64,000 bases of DNA from Arenicellales bacterium. Its GTDB lineage: Bacteria; Pseudomonadota; Gammaproteobacteria; Arenicellales; JAJDZL01. Below are positions 683-52,122 of the stretch, one piece after another; position 1 is the first letter of the stretch, and each line of letters begins with the position of its first letter. The notes under the pieces were generated by a model. That model was not told the DNA's origin. It did no database searches and saw nothing but the letters and a program-made list of their open reading frames with translations. A program made the position numbers and the translations under genes. The stretch lies in the NCBI GenBank assembly GCA_965200425.1, contig CBDAUA010000004.1, forward strand, positions 146,105-210,104, read 5' to 3'.

Positions 683-967
683 CTAACGATTGAAGATTCG
701 AGCCCCGGACTCTCGAATGATTTGCTTCGCTTTAAAGATGGCGTGTTGGCAAGCAGAGTCAAAGTCCGGATGAGTATCTGCACGGATAAAATAGTGTTCT
801 TGTCGTTCACCATTTTCTTGATCTTGGTAGATATACCCTGCGGTAACGTAAGTGTTACTTTGTTTCATCGGTGCAGGTTTTATCAGAAAACCTTCGTGTT
901 CCACCATTTCAACGTTCGGTTCTGCTTCTGGCTTATTCTTTCCGAGCAGTCGACTAAAGAATCCCAT
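683..967 (-). CDS. Small HlyU-like protein (PF10115-type family of unknown function)
   Basis: 94 aa. The pattern MGFFSRLLGK..EPxxVEHEGFxIKPAP...FIRADT...AxxKAKQIIxExGxRIF matches my memory of the proteobacterial 'transcriptional activator HlyU' family. Confidence 0.6.
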   Translation of the reverse strand: MGFFSRLLGKNKPEAEPNVEMVEHEGFLIKPAPMKQSNTYVTAGYIYQDQENGERQEHYFIRADTHPDFDSACQHAIFKAKQIIRESGARIFNR

Positions 968-1900
968 ATTATTACTAATTGTTGATGGTTAAAAAATTAT
1001 GATTTTTTCCAGTCGATAAATTGTCCTTGGTACCGAACAATATGTTTGAAATTTTAACAGACAAGGATTTCGCGCACATCCGATTTTGAAAGTCATTCCA
1101 GATCCATCCCTAGATAAGACATCAAATTTGAAATAAATCAGGAAATTTTACGCGCTGATCCGAGTGCTGGGATTTGAAGGCGATTTGTACTTGATAATTT
1201 CACAAAACATACATTTTTTGAAAACGATTTCCGATTGGGATGCATCTTCTTAGCACCTAAAAGCATCGATGGTACCTAGGGAATTTCATGACGCGCACGT
1301 TAGCCAGCTGTCGTAGTAAATTTTCGCAGCTGACGGTAAGTAACAAGATTATGCTAGATTTTGAAGTTGTAATCGAATCCGAGCTGTAGCCGGGTTGTTC
1401 AAATTAAGGTCTGTGCGCTTAACGAATACGGAGGTGTTATCGAGCAGCAAGGTATTAGGCGGTTGGATCAGTAATCATTGAGCACCAAGATATTAAGTCT
1501 TATTCGAACAAAAAGAACAATTCTTTTACTCCATTTTCGCTTCGATGACTTTCTAGGAGATGTTTTGGTGTGGCATCCTTGTATATTGTTGTAGATGTTG
1601 ACAGGACGCACGATAAGTTGTCAGATTTTAGGCTTGTTGGAAAGAGCTGACGACTTAGTCATCTTTCTGAAAACATATTTCGGGAAGTCTCAGAATTTAC
1701 GAAAATAATGAAGATTTATTTTGAAAAAAGACGCCAAGAAAATTTTTCAATTTCTACTTGATTCTACATACGAACGTCCAAAATGGTGGGTAAGGAACGG
1801 CAGTAAATTGAGTGTTCTATGAAATCAATTGACAAGATTTACAATTGATTGTCAAAGTGAGGAGTTAGCCTGTCATTTTGTGACTAATTGACTTGTTGAA

Positions 1901-2242
1901 TTACTGAGTTCTATCTTCCTTTTTCAGCGTGCCATATTCCCTAGTTAGGGTAGCAATAATTTGATCCTGTTGACGAGCCATAGTTGCAAGGTCAGTTTTC
2001 ATAGCACGGAAATCGGTTTTCAATGCACGGACATCAGTCACTAAAGTCGCAACATCAACTTTTAATGAGGTAATTTCAGATGTCAGTTTTTCTCCTACGT
2101 CGTCAATTCTTGTGGTCAGATTCCAGAAGGAACCAATCATCGCAGCAGTAAGAAAAAAGCAAAAACCAATTGCTGTCCTACTCAGCGTTACATGGACACT
2201 TAGCGTCCCTATAACTTTGGCTAGCTTTGACTGAGTATCCAA
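1901..2242 (-). CDS. Small membrane-anchored coiled-coil protein, tandem paralog A (4 heptads, TTG start)
   Basis: 113-aa ORF. The N-terminal 66 aa match copies B and C except for one residue. One TM segment (AIGFCFFLTAAMIGSFW) is followed by LKVDVAT-LVTDVRA-LKTDFRA-MKTDLAT. There is no in-frame ATG, only TTG. Confidence 0.55.
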   Translation of the reverse strand: MDTQSKLAKVIGTLSVHVTLSRTAIGFCFFLTAAMIGSFWNLTTRIDDVGEKLTSEITSLKVDVATLVTDVRALKTDFRAMKTDLATMARQQDQIIATLTREYGTLKKEDRTQ

Positions 2243-2319
2243 TTCTTCTCGGGTAGCGTGTTGGTGCTTGTCAAGGAGAGGATCTAACCTGTCATTTTGT
2301 GACCAATCGACTTGTTGAA

Positions 2320-2628
2320 TTACTGAATTCTATCTTCCTTTTTCAGCGTGCTTAGGATAGCAATAATTTGATCCTGTCGACTAGCCAAAGCCGCAACATC
2401 AGTCTTTAAAGCCGCAACATCAGTCTTTAAAGTCGCAACATCAACTTTTAATGAGGTAATTTCAGATGTCAGTTTTTCTCCTACGTCGTCAATTCTTGTG
2501 GTCAGATTCCAGAAGGAACCAATCATCGCAGCAGCAAGAAAAAAGCAAAAACCAATTGCTGTCCTACTCAGCGTTACATGGACACTTAGCGTCCCTATAA
2601 CTTTGGCTAGCTTTGACTGAGTATCCAA
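2320..2628 (-). CDS. Small membrane-anchored coiled-coil protein, tandem paralog B (3 heptads, TTG start)
   Basis: 102-aa ORF with the same N-terminus and TM segment. Heptads are LKVDVAT-LKTDVAA-LKTDVAA. The start codon is TTG. Confidence 0.55.
   Translation of the reverse strand: MDTQSKLAKVIGTLSVHVTLSRTAIGFCFFLAAAMIGSFWNLTTRIDDVGEKLTSEITSLKVDVATLKTDVAALKTDVAALASRQDQIIAILSTLKKEDRIQ
2389..2451 (-). repeat. 3 x 21-nt in-frame tandem repeat encoding the heptad LKTDVA(A/T)
   Basis: agccgcaacatcagtctttaa occurs twice, followed by agtcgcaacatcaacttttaa. Copy C has two units (2775-2816). Copy A has four more diverged units (about 1982-2065). Confidence 0.9.
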
Positions 2629-2705
2629 TTCTTCTCGGGTAGCGTGTTGGTGCTTGTCAAGGAGAGGAGTTAGCCTGTCATTTTGTGACCAATTGAATTG
2701 TTGAA

Positions 2706-3026
2706 TTACTGAATTCTATCTTCCTTTGTCAGCGTGCTTAGGATAGCAATAATTTGATCCTGTCGACTAGCCAAAGTCGCAACATCAGTCTTTAAAGTCG
2801 CAACATCAACTTTTAATGAAGTAATTTCAGATGTCAGTTTTTCTCCTACGTCGTCAATTCTTGTGGTCAGATTCCAGAAGGAACCAATCATCGCAGCAGC
2901 AAGAAAAAAGCAAAAACCAATTGCTGTCCTACTCAGCGTTACATGGACACTTAGCGTCCCTATAACTTTGGCTAGCTTTGACTGAGTATCCAATTCTTCT
3001 CGGGTAACATATTGGTGTTCATTCAT
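2706..3026 (-). CDS. Small membrane-anchored coiled-coil protein, tandem paralog C (2 heptads, ATG start, promoter-proximal)
   Basis: 106-aa ORF with an ATG start (MNEHQYVTREELDTQ...). A TATAAT lies about 20 nt upstream. Heptads are LKVDVAT-LKTDVAT. Confidence 0.7.
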   Translation of the reverse strand: MNEHQYVTREELDTQSKLAKVIGTLSVHVTLSRTAIGFCFFLAAAMIGSFWNLTTRIDDVGEKLTSEITSLKVDVATLKTDVATLASRQDQIIAILSTLTKEDRIQ

Positions 3027-3044
3027 GTCTATTTCTCTCTAGTC

Positions 3045-3050
3045 ATTATA
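3045..3050 (-). promoter_or_regulatory. Candidate -10 box (TATAAT on the minus strand) for the tandem array
   Basis: The reverse complement reads ...tggaatcatttatataaaatcTATAATgactagagagaaatagacATG. The -35 (TGGAAT) is weak. Confidence 0.3.
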
Positions 3051-4029
3051 GATTTTATATAAATGATTCCAGATGTGGGAAACGATGTTCCATTTACATT
3101 GCCCAGGTTCGAAACCAACGACAAGCTCAAAATTTGAATTGAGCGAATCAACGAGTGGAATAACAATAGAAGCCCACTAATTTCGATTCCGCATCAATAT
3201 CAAGTTCCGAGGGTAAGGGTTCAATAGCCTGCCTGTTAAACCCTTTGCGTGAGCGGAATTAACGAAAGGGCCCATATCATAACACTTGAAGGCATAGTTT
3301 GCCAAACTTTGATAACTAGATACTAAGTCGAAATAACTTTTGAATGCAAATATCAGTGAGAAAAACAGTACTTGCGATTCGAAAGCACACCTGGTCTTTT
3401 CCAAAGGGAATTTGCAACAGCCATTACATCGAAACTAGTTAACGAATTTCATTCCCCCGATGAATGCCGATTAAATGGCTGACGAAATCAACTCCAAAAC
3501 AACCGATCGAAAGAGACCGAAAATTAGAAATTCAGAGCCGAAAACCCATTTTCATCCCCTTTCCAGCGGTATTTTCATTGTTTTGCGAATTGTGAACAAG
3601 CAAAGTCAAGCAACTGGGCGTAGTGCTAACGAAATAGGGCTGAACTTACCGTGCTCATCGGCTTAGGCCACGGTGATTAAAGGTGAAAGCACTAGTATGT
3701 TAGATGCACACAGAAACCAAAGTGCTTCTGTTTTAGCTGAAAATCAAGTATTTGTTCCAACTGATAAGCCTCTCGATTTACAATTTATGCTACTCGGAAT
3801 TTCAAACTTTACTAGCAATCAATTACTCACCAACTCAGCTCTACAATCCGATCAATATCCTTCGAATCGCATAGTCCGAATTACTGAATGCGGTAGGAAA
3901 TAGGGTGTCGCGATATTCGAAAAGGATAAAATGTACATTTTGCTGAATTAAAATTCATGGAACGAATTCACCAGCCTAGGTCATTTACCGTCTCCATCTT
4001 AGCTGTACACCTTGATTCGTAAGAAAGTC

Positions 4030-4785
4030 ATGATATCGAAAAAAATTGTTGGAAATTGGAAAATGAATGGGAGTTACGACTTCGCTCGTACATTGACAAA
4101 ACAACTGTTGCAGGGTGCCAATAAATCCCAGTCAGCTGAGCTGGTCATTTGTCCGCCTTCGGTATACTTGCAGTTTGTAGCCAATATGATTGCCGATTCG
4201 AGCGCTATAGCGCTAGGGGCACAAAACACGAACGAACACTCGAGCGGTGCTTTTACTGGCGAAGTATCAACCTCGATGCTCAAGGAATTAGGATGCAAGT
4301 TTGTAATCACCGGTCACTCCGAAAGACGGCAGTATTATGGTGAAACGGATACTGAAGTAGCTCGAAAGACCTTGGCGGTAATCAATCAAGGCTTGATACC
4401 CATCGCCTGTGTCGGAGAAACACTGATCGAAAGACAAAATAACCAGGCTCGTGAGGTTATCCAAAGGCAGTTAGACTCAATTCTAGCATTGATACCGGTT
4501 GACAAGTTAGTGAGTCTTTGTGTCGCCTATGAACCAGTGTGGGCAATTGGAACCGGCCAGGTTGCCGCGCCAGAGCAAGCACAGGAAGTACACGACTGGA
4601 TTAGGCAGCGACTCGAGGCAAAAAATTCCACCGTTTCCGATTCTTGCCCCATCCTCTACGGCGGTAGTGTGAACGGTGCAAATGCAGCGAGTATTTTGCT
4701 ACAACCAGATATTGACGGATGCTTGATAGGAGGCGCATCCTTGAAGCCAGATGAATTCTTGAAAATATATAATGAAGCAGGATGA
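4030..4785 (+). CDS. tpiA: Triosephosphate isomerase
   Basis: MISKKIVGNWKMNG..., ITGHSERR and AYEPVWAIGTG motifs. I prefer the ATG at 4030 over the TTG at 4012. Confidence 0.95.
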   Translation: MISKKIVGNWKMNGSYDFARTLTKQLLQGANKSQSAELVICPPSVYLQFVANMIADSSAIALGAQNTNEHSSGAFTGEVSTSMLKELGCKFVITGHSERRQYYGETDTEVARKTLAVINQGLIPIACVGETLIERQNNQAREVIQRQLDSILALIPVDKLVSLCVAYEPVWAIGTGQVAAPEQAQEVHDWIRQRLEAKNSTVSDSCPILYGGSVNGANAASILLQPDIDGCLIGGASLKPDEFLKIYNEAG

Positions 4786-4801: not shown

Positions 4802-5155
4802 ATGGAAATAATTACAAAGATTCTATTGGGTCTGTTTTTCGTAACTGCGATTAGTCTAATCGTTTTGATCTTGTTGCAGCGCGGGCGCGGTTCCGATTTG
4901 GGGGCTGTTTTTGGTGGTGGTTCACAATCAGTCTTCGGAAGTCGTGGATCTGCCAGTTTTCTCTCTAGAATAACCGCTGTACTCGCCACCGTTTTTTTTG
5001 GTATCGCTTTAAGTTTGGCCTATATCTACACAGGGTCTCGTACCCCACAAAGTATCACGGATACTATATTGGAGACAGTGTCTGAATCTGATTTGCCACA
5101 AATTGAATCTTCGGAAGAACAAGATTCCAGTGAATTACCCAAAGTACCAGAATAA
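4802..5155 (+). CDS. secG: Preprotein translocase subunit SecG
   Basis: 117 aa. LLQRGRGSDLGAVFGGGSQSVFGSRG is the SecG signature, and the gene sits between tpiA and tRNA-Leu. Confidence 0.93.
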   Translation: MEIITKILLGLFFVTAISLIVLILLQRGRGSDLGAVFGGGSQSVFGSRGSASFLSRITAVLATVFFGIALSLAYIYTGSRTPQSITDTILETVSESDLPQIESSEEQDSSELPKVPE

Positions 5156-5173: not shown

Positions 5174-5257
5174 GCCGGAGTGGTGGAATGGAAGACACGC
5201 CGTCTTGAGGGGGCGGTGGCTTAGGCCGTGCCGGTTCGAGTCCGGCCTTCGGCACCA
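5174..5257 (+). tRNA. tRNA-Leu (anticodon GAG), with encoded CCA
   Basis: Folded by hand. Acceptor GCCGGAG/CTTCGGC with one G-U pair. Anticodon stem CCGTC/GGCGG with loop TTGAGGG. Long variable arm. T-arm GCCGG-TTCGAGT-CCGGC. Discriminator A plus CCA. Confidence 0.93.
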
Positions 5258-6749: not shown

Positions 6750-7986
6750 CTACACCATGAATTTCGGCCCGCAGCATCCCGCCGCGCATGGGGTACTGCG
6801 ACTCGTCTTGGAAATGGATGGTGAAGTCATCGAACGCGTTGACCCGCATATTGGACTACTCCATCGAGCGACGGAAAAGTTAGCCGAATCCAAACCCTTT
6901 AACCAAAGCATTGGTTATATGGACCGCCTCGATTACGTTTCGATGATGTGCAATGAACATGCTTATGTACTGGCGATCGAAAAACTGTTGGGTGTTGTAC
7001 CGCCGATTCGAGCACAGTTTATTCGAGTGATGTTCGATGAGATTACGCGTATCTTGAACCACTTGCTATGGCTCGGCGCACATGGACTCGACATTGGTGC
7101 GATGACCGTCTTTTTGTACTGTTTTCGTGAACGTGAAGATCTCATGGACTGCTACGAGGCTGCGTCCGGAGCGCGCATGCATGCGACTTATTACCGACCC
7201 GGTGGCGTATATCGCGATTTACCTGATTCGATGCCCCAATATGCTCCATCAAAAAATCGTGGCAAACGAAAACTCGCCGAAATCAATAGGAATCGTCAAG
7301 GTTCGCTACTGGATTTCATTTGGGACTTTACCGACCGCTTTCCGAAACGGGTCGACGAATACGAAACACTGTTGTCAGATAATCGAATTTGGAAGCAACG
7401 AACGGTTGATATAGGAGTTGTATCCCCTGAGGAATGTCTAGCGAGAGGATTTACAGGCCCGATGCTACGAGGTTCTGGAGTCGAGTGGGACTTGAGAAAG
7501 AAACAACCATACGCAGTGTACGATCAGATGGATTTCGACATTCCCGTTGGCACCAACGGTGATTGTTATGACCGTTATCTGTGTCGTGTAGAAGAAATGC
7601 GTCAATCCAACAGAATCATTCGTCAATGCGTGAAATGGTTAAACGATAACCCCGGTCCAGTCATAATCGATGATGCAAAATTGATCGCTCCCAATCGGGA
7701 AACGATGAAGCGGGATATGGAGTCGCTCATTCATCACTTTAAGCTGTTCACCGAAGGTTATTGTGTACGAGAAGGAGAGGCTTACGCAGCAGTTGAAGCT
7801 CCTAAAGGTGAATTTGGAATTTATTTGATATCGGATGGTGCGAATAAACCGTATCGCTTAAAGATTAGAGCACCGGGTTTTGTTCATTTGTCCGCTTTAG
7901 ACCAAATGTGCAGAGGGCATATGTTGGCTGATGTCGTCGCAATTATCGGGACACAGGACATTGTATTTGGAGAAGTTGACCGCTAG
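6733..7986 (+). CDS. nuoD: NADH-quinone oxidoreductase subunit D
   Basis: GTG start. [24 protein letters not shown]...; C-terminus DIVFGEVDR. Overlaps nuoC by 17 nt. Confidence 0.96.
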
Positions 7987-8456
7987 TGTTATCGATTCAG
8001 GCACAAGACGAAATTCGAAGTGAGATTAGAAAGTATCCAGCCGGTCATGCGCGGGCAGCAGTAATGGCAGCACTTCGAATCGCACAGCAAGAGCATGGCT
8101 GGGTGAATCGCGATGTCATGGAGTACATCGCGGATTTTCTGGAAATCGAACCGATCAAGGTAGCGGAAGTTGCTACCTTCTACACCATGTACGATCTAAA
8201 GCCAATTGGTCGTTACAAAATTAATCTTTGTACGAATATAACCTGTGCTTTAAGAGGGTCGGATACGATTACAAAATATCTGAACGAAAAATTGGGTATT
8301 GGCTTCGGAGAGACTACAAAAGACCAACTTTTTACATTGCAAGAAGTAGAATGTCTCGCGGCCTGTGATTGGGCGCCCGTTGCGCTAATCAATACGGATT
8401 ATTACGAGCACCTTACCCCGCAAAAAATAGACAAAATTTTAGACTCTCTGCCATGA
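7986..8456 (+). CDS. nuoE: NADH-quinone oxidoreductase subunit E
   Basis: [2Fe-2S] motifs [10 protein letters not shown] and [12 protein letters not shown]. Confidence 0.94.
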
Positions 8457-9727
8457 CAGTTCAGGAAGTTCGAATTTGCTTGCCACAACCAGGGCTGAAA
8501 GAGTCTTGGACTCTAAAGGCCTACGAAAGTATTGGTGGATATGAACAATGGCGCAAAATTTTGGCAAATTCTACTCCACCTGTAGACATCATCAACGAAG
8601 TCAAGGCATCCGGACTCAGAGGCAGAGGCGGTGCTGGTTTTCCGACAGGACTGAAGTGGAGCTTTATGCCACGTCACGTACCTGGTCAAAAATATCTGGT
8701 TTGTAACTCGGATGAAGGTGAACCAGGCACATTCAAGGATCGAGACATTCATGTCTACAATCCCCACGCTCTTATTGAAGGAATGGCGATCGGAGGTTAT
8801 GCCATGGGTGCAACCATCGGCTACAACTACCTTCGAGGAGAATTTTTTAAACCATACGAGCGCTTCGAACAAGCTTTGGCGGAAGCTAGGCAGGCGGGAC
8901 TACTAGGCACGAATATCTTCGGTAGTGGTGTGGATTTTGATATTCATACTCATCTCGGTGCAGGAGCCTATATCTGTGGGGAAGAAACGGGTCTTTTAGA
9001 GTCATTGGAAGGTAAATCTGGTCAACCAAGATTCAAACCTCCTTTCCCAGCACAGTATGGTGCTTTCGGTCGACCAACTACGATCAATAACACTGAGACC
9101 TTAGCCAGTGTACCGCGAATTTTGCAAGAAGGCGCACAATGGTTCGTAAATCTAGGCCCGAAGAACAATGCAGGAACCAAAGTCTTTTCGGTGTCAGGAC
9201 ATGTTAAAAAGCCGGGAAATTATGAAATTCCTCTCGGTGTACCGTTTCGCGAGTTATTGGAGCTTGCAGGTGGGATGCTCGACGGTTCACGCTTGAAGGC
9301 CGTCATTCCAGGAGGGTCCTCCGTCCCAGTCTTGCCGGCCGAAATCATAATACAATCTAACATGGACTATGATTCCTTGCAGGCTGCTGGTTCTATGTTG
9401 GGTGCTGGATCCGTCATTATCATGGATCAAACTACTTGTATGGTGCAGGTGCTGGAACGAATCGCATATTTTTACTGGGAAGAATCCTGTGGGCAGTGTA
9501 CTCCTTGTCGCGAAGGTACGGGATGGCTCTACCGTCTAGTGAAAAAAATTCGTACAGGTCGTGCCCGAATGGAAGAAATCGATCAGCTATTAGATGTTGC
9601 CAATCGAATTGAGGGCAGAACAATTTGCGCTTTGGGGGACGCGGCAGCTTGGCCCGTACAGAGTTTTCTGAAGCACTTTCGACATGAATTCGAAGCCAAA
9701 ATTTTGGCTTCAAAACGAGCAGCATAA
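8453..9727 (+). CDS. nuoF: NADH-quinone oxidoreductase subunit F
   Basis: The ATG at 8453 forms an ATGA overlap with the nuoE stop. [16 protein letters not shown] (FMN), [19 protein letters not shown] and [12 protein letters not shown] motifs. Confidence 0.95.
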
Positions 9728-9734
9728 ATAGACA

Positions 9735-12143
9735 ATGGCCACCGATAATATGATTACAGTTGAAATAGACGAGCAGACACTGACATGCTCGCCAGGGGAA
9801 ATGGTGATCCAAGTCGCTGATGAAGCAGGGATCTACATTCCTCGATTTTGTTATCACGAGAAGCTTTCGGTCGCCGCGAATTGTCGGATGTGTCTAGTTG
9901 AGGTCGAACGGGCACCAAAACCATTACCGGCCTGTGCCACACCAGTGATGGATGGCATGAAAGTGAAGACCGTTTCAAAAAAGGCGGTCGAAGCACAAAA
10001 AGATACACTCGAATTTTTGCTAATTAATCATCCACTTGATTGTCCAATTTGCGATCAAGGTGGTGAATGCCCATTACAAGATCAAGCCGTAGGATACGGG
10101 GGACACCTTTCGCGATTTGAAGAAAAAAAACGTGTGGTTTCCGATCATGATATCGGCCCCCTTATCGAGACTGAAATGACGCGATGCATTCACTGCACCC
10201 GGTGTGTGCGTTTCGGAGAAGAAATTGCCGGTGTGATGGAACTAGGTATCACTCATCGAAGTGAACACTTAAAGATAGATACTTTTTTCAACAGTCCTGT
10301 TCACTCTGAAGTGTCGGGAAACGCCATTGACCTATGTCCGGTTGGTGCTTTGACATCAAAACCCTATCGATTCACTGCGCGATCATGGGAATTGATTGGC
10401 CATTCTTCCGTCAGTCCACATGATTGCGTCGGTACAAATCTCGAAATCCAAACTTTACGTGGTGAAGTCAAACGAGTGTTGCCGCGAGTCAATGAGGCGG
10501 TAAACGAATGTTGGATTTCAGATCGAGATCGATATAGCTATGAAGCAGTTATCGGCGCCGGCCGGTTAACTCAGCCGATGATGCGTACTGAATCTGGCAT
10601 GATCGAGGTGAGCTGGCACGACGCTCTGAACAAAGTCGTAAGTGAATTAAGGTCGGTCATTGAAGAACATAGTGTGAACGAGTTGGGTGCATTGGTATCT
10701 CCGACTTCGACGTTCGAAGAATTCTATTTGATGCAAAAATTGATGCGTGGCCTTGGTTGCCAGAATGTCGATCATCGATTGCGTCAGATTGATTTTTCAG
10801 GTGATAAAAATGCGCCACTATTTCCAGGTTCAAGCGTTCACATCGATCAGCTATCGACAGCTCGTGCAATTGTGCTTGTCGGTTCCAATATTCGGAAAGA
10901 GCAACCACTGCTTAGTCTGCGAGTACGCAAGGCATCTTTAAATGGAGCCAAAATCGCAGCCATCAATTCAATGGCTTGGGACTACAACTTCAAGCTTGAT
11001 TCCGATGTCACGGTTGCCCCACGTGTGATGCCTTATGCACTAGCACATGTGCTTCAATGGGTTTGTTCGATCAAAGGTATAGAGTATCCAGTAGATATAT
11101 CAACCGAGTTCCTACGTGGAGCGAGTCGATTTGCAAATAGTGAAAATTGTCAAGAAATCGCTCAGTTGTTGTGTGACCAGGGTTCTGAATCTGTTTTAAT
11201 TCTAGGACAATCTGTGATTTCGCATCCGATGTATAGTTGTATAGAACGGCTAGCAAATCACACCGCTGACTTGTCAGGATCGTCCTTGGTAACATTGCCT
11301 CCAGCAAATTCAGCCGCCGGCTGGCTAGCCGGTTGTATTCCTCACCGCACGGAAAATGGTCAAGCTGTTTCGTCACCGGGTTTTAACGCTCGTCAAATGG
11401 TGCACAATCCGAAGTCGGCGTACTTACTCTTCAATGTGGAGCCTACGAAGGATTTATCGGATGGGTTGCATGTTGCCGATGCGATGGATAGCGCGAAGTT
11501 CGTGATCAGTTTTCAATCCTTCGATGAGATTCCGGATTATGTAGACGTAGCACTACCGATCGCTCCGTTCACGGAAAACGCCGGGACGTTCATTAGTTGT
11601 GAAGGTCGCATTCAGAAGGCGGTTGCAGCAACTGAACCAATCGGAGAAGCTCGACCTGGCTGGAAGATATTGCGCGTACTCGGCAATTTTCTGGGAATCG
11701 ACGGGTTTGATTATGTGACGGTAGATGAGATTTTGCAGGAAGCCGCTCCGCCAGAGGGTCTTTGTGCATATTTGGACTCTGTTCAGGATGACACGGTTCC
11801 CTGTATAGCAAAGGAAAAAGAAAAAGAACCTGGTCGATTTGAATTGATCACGGATCCATTAATTTACGCGGTCGATCCTGTCGTGCGACGAGCGAAATCA
11901 TTGCAGCAAACAGCTGATGCTGCACCTGTCAATGTTGGTCTCAATCCCAGCGATATGGCAAGCTTGGACTTAGAGAGCGGTTCTGCAGTTACCTTACATC
12001 ATGATTTGTTTAGCATTCACACTCACGCCTACCCCGATTCTCGGGTTGCCCTGGGATGCGCATATTATCCGTCGGGAAACGCTGACGGTCCGACTGCTGC
12101 ATATGGTGCCGAGATTTTACTCGAGCACGAGGTTTGTGAATGA
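9735..12143 (+). CDS. nuoG: NADH-quinone oxidoreductase subunit G
   Basis: 802 aa. N-terminal 2Fe-2S ([18 protein letters not shown]), [14 protein letters not shown] and [10 protein letters not shown] motifs. Confidence 0.95.
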
Positions 12144-52034: not shown

Positions 52035-52122
52035 TGGTGCCGGGAGAGAGACTCGAACTCTCACGGTGTCGCCACCGCCGGATTTTGAATCCGGTGCGTC
52101 TGCCAAATTTCGCCATCCCGGC
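52035..52122 (-). tRNA. tRNA-Leu (anticodon CAA), with encoded CCA
   Basis: The reverse complement reads GCCGGGA...CCGGA-TTCAAAA-TCCGG...long variable arm...GAGAG-TTCGAGT-CTCTC-TCCCGGC-A-CCA. Confidence 0.93.

Follow-up and report, generated by a model that had tools for sequence, protein, structure and literature searches.

A tandem array of three small membrane-anchored coiled-coil genes with graded heptad numbers in an Arenicellales genome

The stretch of DNA analysed here (hereafter the window) comprises 64,000 nucleotides (nt) from an Arenicellales bacterium (GenBank assembly GCA_965200425.1, contig CBDAUA010000004.1, forward-strand positions 146,105 to 210,104), and close to its start it carries an array of three small genes, copies C, B and A, whose products combine one transmembrane (TM) helix with a heptad-repeat coiled coil. 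The genes lie head to tail on the minus strand and encode proteins of 106 (C), 102 (B) and 113 (A) amino acids (aa), with stop-to-stop distances of 386 nt from C to B and 419 nt from B to A. This locus is probably a co-expressed, three-copy tandem array of paralogs, small bitopic membrane proteins whose family is rare and without annotation.

Anatomy and duplication history of the array

A preliminary description, made from the letters alone, had proposed three tandem units with these spacings and proteins of about 100 aa, and both the list of open reading frames (ORFs) and Tandem Repeats Finder agreed with it; the latter reported a period of 386 nt, 2.6 copies, 94% matches and a score of 1694, far beyond chance, as well as 21-nt in-frame repeats within every copy. 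The heptad counts given there (two, three and four in copies C, B and A) were also correct. The features of the array, all on the minus strand, are as follows.

3045-3081: candidate promoter region of the array, with TATAAT at 3045-3050 and an alternative TTCCCA-18-TAAAAT at 3052-3081 (consensus matches only)
2706-3026: copy C, 106 aa, native ATG at 3024-3026; YVTREEL head, one TM helix, two xKxDxxx heptads, QDQIIAIL tail
2796-3005: homogenised 210-nt block of copy C, from ACCCGAG to the end of heptad 1
2871-2942: TM segment of copy C, about residues 29-52, VTLSRTAIGFCFFLAAAMIGSFW (from hydropathy and flank charges)
2775-2816: the two 21-nt heptad repeats of copy C
2629-2705: C-B spacer, in which 2654-2705 is a copy of the putative ancestral 3' flank and ends in TTGACAA
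2629-2653: leader within the C-B spacer, derived from gene codons 3/4-11; the duplication junction
2320-2628: copy B, 102 aa from a TTG, three heptads
2431-2640: 210-nt block of copy B equivalent to that of copy C
2389-2451: the three 21-nt heptad repeats of copy B, of which the second and third are identical in DNA
2243-2319: B-A spacer, with structure and junction as in the C-B spacer
1901-2242: copy A, 113 aa from a TTG, four mutually diverged heptads and a 12-nt (REYG) insertion
2045-2254: 210-nt block of copy A equivalent to that of copy C
1982-2065: the four 21-nt heptad repeats of copy A, of which the second to fourth have diverged from one another
1849-1900: 3' flank (stub) after copy A, 52 nt; putative template of both spacers, diverging past TTGACAA

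The TM segment VTLSRTAIGFCFFLAAAMIGSFW of copy C recurs in copies B and A. In-frame homology to codons 1-11 of copy C extends upstream of copy B to position 2661, without a start codon, and the corresponding homology of copy A to the copy C head extends to 2275. Some peptides are copy-specific, LKTDVAALKTDVAAL for copy B and LVTDVRALKTDFRAMK and TLTREYGTLK for copy A, and could serve, for example, to tell the products apart; at the N-terminus, MDTQSK would mark a TTG start and MNEHQYVTR the ATG start.

A 386-nt repeat with 94% identity is able to mislead assemblers, and the preliminary description had named an assembly artefact as one way in which it might fail. Collapse or expansion of the repeat is hardly credible, however, since a separately assembled ENA contig (L002; ERZ25068762 ctg100938_2x_l, 9.6 kb) was 100% identical to the window over 1601 nt spanning the array, with the same three copies and the same heptad counts; over 5 kb, two indels were the sole differences between them, both outside the array. 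Moreover, copies A, B and C are individually distinguishable in sequence, and the same architecture was found in four independent assemblies of a sister locus described below. The exact NuoD sequence of the window organism was present in many runs of one SRA series (SRR33991070-98), and Logan short-read contigs (runs SRR33960549 and SRR33960553) ended at the array edge. The best named relatives of this NuoD were about 83-84% identical and came from metagenome-assembled genomes of Arenicellales and Acidiferrobacterales and from Nitrosococcus, which points no further than to an uncultured gammaproteobacterium. The identity between L002 and the window ends inside secG at window position 5026, and positions 1-617 of L002 had no match to the window, reflecting either a structural difference or a chimeric contig end (2x coverage).

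Each stop codon was followed by a 52-nt segment (TTCAACAA...TTGACAA), which in the spacers matched the sequence downstream of copy A. In both spacers this flank copy was fused to GCACCAACACGCT-ACCCGAG, whose homologue in copy C is the stretch of codons 3/4-9 (GAACACCAATATGTT-ACCCGAG). Taken together, the flank copy and the codon homology place the duplicated segment between approximately codon 4 and some 52 nt past the stop codon. A tandem duplication of such a segment would leave the native ATG, the ribosome-binding region and the promoter to copy C only, because the segment begins at about codon 4; a second round of unequal exchange would yield the third copy and, for that reason, two identical junctions; and the stub would trail the array because it represents the ancestral 3' flank. 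The stub had previously been noticed as the leader of a fourth unit. Its existence was borne out (52 nt, 1849-1900), but it is best read as the ancestral 3' flank co-duplicated with the gene and not as the start of another unit. These steps in the origin and evolution of the array are read directly from the sequence; those on expression, topology and function set out further on are inferred. A three-codon mini-ORF was also present in both spacers and in the stub (2672-2683, 2286-2297 and 1867-1878, minus strand), reading ATG ACA GGC TAA, or ATG ACA GGT TAG in the B-A spacer, where both substitutions keep the glycine and the stop, possibly by coincidence.

Divergence among the copies was mosaic. 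Between LDTQ and VDVATL a single A/T change, located in copy A, set the three proteins apart, in agreement with the preliminary description, and within the 210-nt block only 1-2 nt differed between copies (0.5-1%), whereas the spacers and the 3' flank showed 4-7 differences per 46 nt (9-15%; Fisher's exact test of block vs spacer, p ~5e-4). In the tail, a single difference per 69 nt separated copies C and B, compared with 5-6 per 69 nt (7-9%) plus a 12-nt indel between copy A and either of the others. As purifying selection on the protein cannot erase synonymous differences, this pattern points to gene conversion as the process that has kept the N-terminal 210 nt near-identical while the spacers and the copy A tail drifted. 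An earlier suggestion of recent duplication or concerted evolution is thereby upheld. The copies had further been said to differ mainly in heptad number; this is right as to the counts, but it overlooked the tail of copy A, which carries the 12-nt (REYG) insertion and five amino-acid changes and which (RE.Y, RTQ) is closer to the outgroup protein P0004 than the tails of copies B and C are. Copy C holds three private nucleotide differences that neither copy B nor copy A could donate.

Heptad number shifts by gain or loss of 21-nt units. Heptads 2 and 3 of copy B are exact 21-nt duplicates, which indicates that its extra heptad is a recent slippage gain, whereas heptads 2-4 of copy A differ from one another at many positions and are old. 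Two proteins of the window's own subfamily, P0008 and P0004, are exactly one heptad apart. Together with the variation among sister arrays, these observations agree with the proposal in the preliminary description that slippage or recombination alters coiled-coil length.

An unnamed protein family and its sister arrays

Besides copies A, B and C, a word-indexed search with copy C retrieved just P0004 (56% identity) and a match confined to the heptads. An exhaustive profile search gave 690 matches, nearly all of them restricted to the heptad region and few full-length, and a second profile search added further full-length relatives. The full-length relatives P0004, P0055, P0158-P0160, P0119 and the P0161 group have in common a head motif, a TM segment, heptads and a tail motif; P0055 was matched over its full length at E 1e-9, and at 2e-44 with the second profile. 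The family was accordingly defined by a (Y/F)VTR[ED]EL head, one TM helix, xK[TS]D[VI]xx heptads and a Q-[DE]-Q-I-[IF]-x-[IV]-L tail, and comprises P0001-P0004, P0055, P0119, P0158-P0162, P0165, P0167, P0168 and P0175. In alignments the window proteins show all of these elements, except that copies B and A have no translatable head. Four subfamilies were distinguished, namely the window and Arenicellales type (an Arenicellales example being locus L003, in the metagenome-assembled genome OY282380.1), the P0055 type, the P0119 type and the MKLTLEESNRWQR type.

No model of Pfam, NCBIfam, PHROG or PADLOC reached its cut-off for copies A, B or C, which gave sub-threshold TM and coiled-coil matches only, and PADLOC models were likewise not matched by the family proteins themselves. 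Close relatives were not found in IMG/VR, JGI metagenomes or plasmids; no source gave a name to any family member, and literature searches returned no description of the family. The family is thus rare and undescribed, billions of proteins having yielded no more than about a dozen full-length relatives, and the remark in the preliminary description that the protein family was not recognised was a fair one.

Tandem arrays also occurred in the MKLTLEESNRWQR subfamily, at one syntenic locus in four assemblies, between an SNF2 helicase fragment and BrxD-like genes and with flanks 95-97.5% identical. Their extents are given below.

L017, 2783-3503: two copies
L005, 7219-8321: three copies
L007, 7216-8342: three copies
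L006, 7518-9614: five copies

The copies of these sister arrays contain 3-9 heptad-like units each, and all 13 keep open frames. The first copy starts at an ATG with a GAGGAGG ribosome-binding site, and its N-terminus is longer; later copies begin within the head region, and a leader stub stands behind the last one. The downstream copies possess their own G-rich Shine-Dalgarno (SD)-like site with a GTG or ATG start, so that they resemble independent genes. Copies 3 and 5 of L006 share 165 nt without a mismatch, and its copies 2 and 4 are near-identical, a pattern suggestive of a recent block duplication of two units. Fixed copy and heptad numbers in related strains, with all copies translated equally, had been named in advance as an observation that would count against the proposal, and in the sister arrays both numbers vary between near-identical strains. 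The occurrence of arrays in two separate branches, and their variation between near-identical strains in one of them, speaks for length diversity as a trait of the whole family, as opposed to a chance feature of one locus; judging from these sequences, arrays and heptad ladders are typical of the family, whose members can also be lost.

Some further observations concern individual relatives. P0119 (L015, 3404-3847) contains a 14-residue unit, LQAGQNALKSDVAA, which is repeated four times and includes a tail-like LQxGQ motif, and its gene adjoins an IS66 transposase fragment. In L004, a 127-aa ORF (9615-9998) located 1.2 kb downstream of the P0160 gene showed weak similarity to the window copies (25% over 110 aa, E 7.5e-5) and may be a distant family member. 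In L003, a 442-aa reverse-transcriptase-like ORF (7668-8996), in our reading of the group II intron type, lies between a GmrSD/NsnA-like gene and the family gene; locus L001, which encodes P0004, has no such ORF.

Predicted architecture and comparison with known proteins

AlphaFold2 (AF2), run with a 16-sequence family alignment, modelled copy C as a single continuous helix over residues 9-105 (predicted local distance difference test score, 88), and Foldseek found no matches to this model in the PDB. The TM segment has a mean hydropathy of 1.6-2.4, and in every subfamily its N side carries 2-4 K/R and few acidic residues, compared with one K/R and 2-3 acidic residues on its C side. By the positive-inside rule, the positively charged flank stays inside; the K/R-richer N-side flank would therefore give an N-in, C-out topology, which is proposed with low confidence. 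The N-terminus had been described as basic, but that of copy C is not net basic (4 K/R vs 4 D/E), only its membrane-proximal part being so. The heptad register was clean in the three copies, including the diverged units of copy A (a = I/V, d = L, e = K, g = D), and ended with a conserved Q at an a position. Against PDB sequences the family profile matched generic coiled coils only, mostly trimeric (DC-SIGNR neck, Lpp, P22 gp26, Reovirus sigma-1 and Fibritin). The most likely reading is that of an Lpp-like rod of about 6, 7 or 8-9 heptads that would be anchored in the inner membrane and extend into the periplasm, its location and oligomeric state being deduced from these predictions. The profile searches, the AF2 model and Foldseek, all proposed earlier as checks or akin to them, matched no characterised family.

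The comparison with Lpp, a periplasmic coiled-coil rod, is of particular interest in that 2-3 extra heptads widen the Escherichia coli periplasm by 3-4 nm, which gives coiled-coil length a physiological effect (PMC5736177). The family profile matched the Lpp structure 1EQ7 at E 1e-3, and both proteins have heptads of the xxDVxxL type. LPP (PF04728) was the best Pfam resemblance of the heptad-rich relatives, P0005 (31.2 bits) and P0017 (29.7 bits) just exceeding the cut-off of 29.1, while copies B and A remained at 16.5 and 15.0 bits and copy C was unlisted; with NF011925 (Lpp) the scores were 18.5-22 bits against a cut-off of 108. The window proteins differ from Lpp in being anchored by an N-terminal TM helix, presumably in the inner membrane, whereas Lpp is held in the outer membrane through a lipobox and acylated Cys, and also in occurring as multi-copy arrays with natural length variation. 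The lipobox [LVI][ASTVI][GAS]C was absent, the sole Cys standing in IGFC, inside the TM segment and with a disallowed F at -1, and even this Cys is missing in P0004 (IGISF). The C-terminal Lys by which Lpp is cross-linked to peptidoglycan was absent too, the window proteins ending in ...EDRIQ or ...EDRTQ and their relatives in PGN, PAN or PNK.

Among PHROG families the best match was PHROG 739, of Rz-like spanins (E 3e-4 to 4e-6, 22-28 bits). Like the Rz i-spanin, the window proteins are of similar size and of type II bitopic design, with an N-terminal TM segment (hydropathy and flank charges) followed by a coiled coil (AF2 helix) that the positive-inside rule would place in the periplasm. It is nonetheless highly improbable that they are phage-derived i-spanins left over from a prophage lysis cassette: the scores are within the range of a compositional TM and coiled-coil match; no o-spanin, holin or endolysin ORF was found near the array, whose neighbours are tpiA, secG, nuo genes, an HlyU-like gene and meaB; and a tblastn search of 50,697 phage genomes gave no match, in line with the IMG/VR result.

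The cell-division proteins FtsB, FtsL and DivIC share with the window proteins a short cytoplasmic tail, one TM helix, a periplasmic leucine zipper and a length of about 100 aa, with scores of 15.5-18.9 bits for FtsL_2 (cut-off 24.6) and 12.4 bits for DivIC (cut-off 28.9). The window genes, however, are multi-copy, their family is strain-variable and rare, and their context is unrelated to the dcw or eno-ftsB loci. The top PDB profile match was the neck of DC-SIGNR/CLEC4M (3JQH, E 2.5e-5), a type II membrane protein with a coiled-coil neck of tandem repeats whose number varies between alleles; this protein is eukaryotic, with 23-residue repeats and a lectin head, and the likeness is one of coiled-coil composition, not homology.

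Expression signals, rival readings and genomic surroundings

The TATAAT at 3045-3050 is 18 nt upstream of the copy C ATG. The claim that copy C alone has an ATG and such an upstream element, with only a TTG available in copies B and A, holds: upstream of their TTG these copies read LDKHQHATREE, no ATG, GTG or TTG precedes it, and the TTG, which encodes Leu-12 of copy C, is their sole in-frame start. Consensus scans detected no terminator-like site within the array, and both spacers were free of promoter-like sites; the array had a single match of the latter kind, a weak ATGACA-17-GACAAT in the stub (1848-1876, minus strand). Hence a transcript begun upstream of copy C would cover all three genes. 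The TTGACA of each spacer was considered as a promoter and discarded for want of an acceptable -10 element. After copy A there is a 9-bp AT-rich inverted repeat (folding z-score -0.8), which was not convincing as a terminator. A frameshift or read-through fusion of C with B was likewise rejected, copy B being in the -1 frame relative to copy C, with a TAG inside the last codons of copy C and no slippery site past that TAG.

Duplex energies with the anti-SD sequence were -3.0 kcal/mol at the TTG of copies B and A and -3.5 at the ATG of copy C, compared with -0.4 to -2.2 for several nuo genes, and both downstream ORFs are complete to the stop codon, with more than 100 intact codons. The preliminary description had called copies B and A poorly translatable; on these figures that view is neither established nor refuted. 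Under the favoured reading of a co-expressed array, the three genes would be co-transcribed from the AT-rich region upstream of copy C, and copies B and A would be translated from the TTG at the Leu-12 position into products lacking the first 11 residues. The cell would then hold coiled-coil rods of about 6, 7 and 8-9 heptads, which as parallel coiled coils would reach from the inner membrane into the periplasm (N-in, C-out).

Several observations weigh against this reading. As a start codon TTG is weak, and pairing of the SD-like GAG covers 3 nt only; copies B and A have no translatable form of a head motif that is conserved across subfamilies. All five tail substitutions between B and A are non-synonymous, so purifying selection on the copy A tail is not demonstrated. 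The two available assemblies of the organism show no variation in the array. In the Arenicellales locus L003, the family gene has a TTA-to-TAA nonsense change in its heptads (at about 10285, corresponding to about 10362 in L001), and the first copy of sister array L007 has ATA instead of ATG, indicating that, as far as these sequences tell, family members are dispensable in some strains. Finally, no defence genes lie near the window array, and no remnants of the defence neighbours of its relatives were found in its flanks.

In a rival explanation, copy C alone would function, copies B and A being untranslated, 5'-truncated by-products of unequal crossing-over and the heptad ladder a product of neutral repeat instability. 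The downstream copies would in that case persist either as young duplicates or as duplicates patched by gene conversion from copy C, in a gene-poor stretch of a small genome. In favour of this explanation, the duplication junction cost copies B and A their ATG, their native ribosome-binding region and their promoter, and the conserved YV in the codons just upstream of their TTG has changed to HA; the same direction is taken by the non-synonymous tail differences, the inactivating changes in other strains and the flanks of about 0.9-1 kb on each side that have no Pfam or Rfam match. We consider it rather unlikely, given that both ORFs are intact, that the diverged heptads of copy A retain a perfect a/d/e/g register, that SD pairing at the TTG resembles that of the copy C ATG, and that the sister copies are open in 13 of 13 cases, the downstream ones with starts of their own.

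Cassette-type variation, which the preliminary description had raised as a speculation, would make copy C a single expression site and copies B and A silent donors whose heptad regions would enter copy C by segmental gene conversion and so switch the length of the displayed coiled coil. Neisseria pilE/pilS, Borrelia vlsE and Anaplasma msp2 are silent-cassette loci of antigenic variation, in which the pilS, vls and msp2 donors are pseudogenes. The window array resembles them in having one 5'-complete, promoter-proximal ATG copy followed by promoterless, 5'-truncated copies; in a variable segment bracketed by conserved blocks, namely the near-identical 210-nt block upstream and AAGGAAGATAGAAYTCAGTAATTCAACAA downstream; and in the gene conversion that evidently acts within it. 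There are, however, just two downstream copies, both complete ORFs with a possible start and a stop, and copy C, with its three private differences, is not a mosaic of B and A. The two assemblies are identical, although two sequences are a weak test of population mosaicism, and in the sister arrays each copy can be translated individually. No recombinase or other specialised element was found near the array. The cassette explanation is therefore left without support and is very unlikely.

The window array lies between an HlyU-like gene (683-967) and meaB on one side and tpiA-secG-tRNA-Leu-nuoA-N on the other. Each side of it consists of about 0.9-1 kb of lower-GC (34-43%) DNA (968-1900 and 3027-4011) without Pfam-matching ORFs, the HlyU-like gene being the only small flanking ORF with a Pfam match, and in the flanks Rfam yielded nothing, either in a scan of 900-4100 at E up to 1 or in one of the entire window at the gathering threshold. 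Such flanks are unusually gene-poor for a 1.5-Mb genome, the source contig being 1.52 Mb long. The related loci have no genes in common with the window. In L001, P0004 is bracketed by matches to NsnA (8180-9328, full-length, E 3.6e-141) and to PDC-M41B/PDC-M30B (DUF5131; 10689-11414, E about 1e-116, and 5e-116 for PDC-M41B); L006 has a ZorD/DpdE-like SNF2 fragment and BrxD-like genes as neighbours, and L004 and L016 a Schlafen/AlbA_2 ATPase. This association of relatives with defence islands is suggestive, but such islands also gather variable genes of many kinds. The search for remnants of these neighbours in the window flanks had as its sole output a weak coiled-coil similarity to the 127-aa neighbour in L004.

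With low confidence, the rods are probably a length-graded component of the envelope or one facing the surface. The relatives change quickly in copy number and length and are situated in defence islands, which suggests a role in an arms race, for instance with phage; a structural spacer role is equally open. On a broader and decidedly doubtful reading, the family would form an undescribed hypervariable envelope module of graded inner-membrane rods, whose length is either under diversifying selection (the blocking or evasion of phage being one example) or tunes envelope spacing, and the window array would represent, in a reduced genome, a new kind of contingency locus. Diversifying selection by phage at the envelope would fit the defence-island location of the relatives.

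The genetic process itself (tandem duplication, 21-nt slippage and gene conversion) is textbook; the protein family, absent from Pfam, NCBIfam, PHROGs and PADLOC, is not. A natural heptad ladder at the inner membrane would be a useful system for studying how envelope distances or phage access are set, and research on the envelope or on phage defence may find a modestly interesting lead in these recurrent length ladders that vary between strains; if the downstream copies are untranslated, the locus would merely be a tidy example of concerted evolution.

One minor observation concerns the tRNA gene beside the array. ARAGORN predicted a tRNA-Leu(GAG) at 5174-5257, between secG and nuoA, which was unlisted in the gathering-threshold Rfam scan of the window; the sole tRNA reported by that scan lies at 52038-52122.

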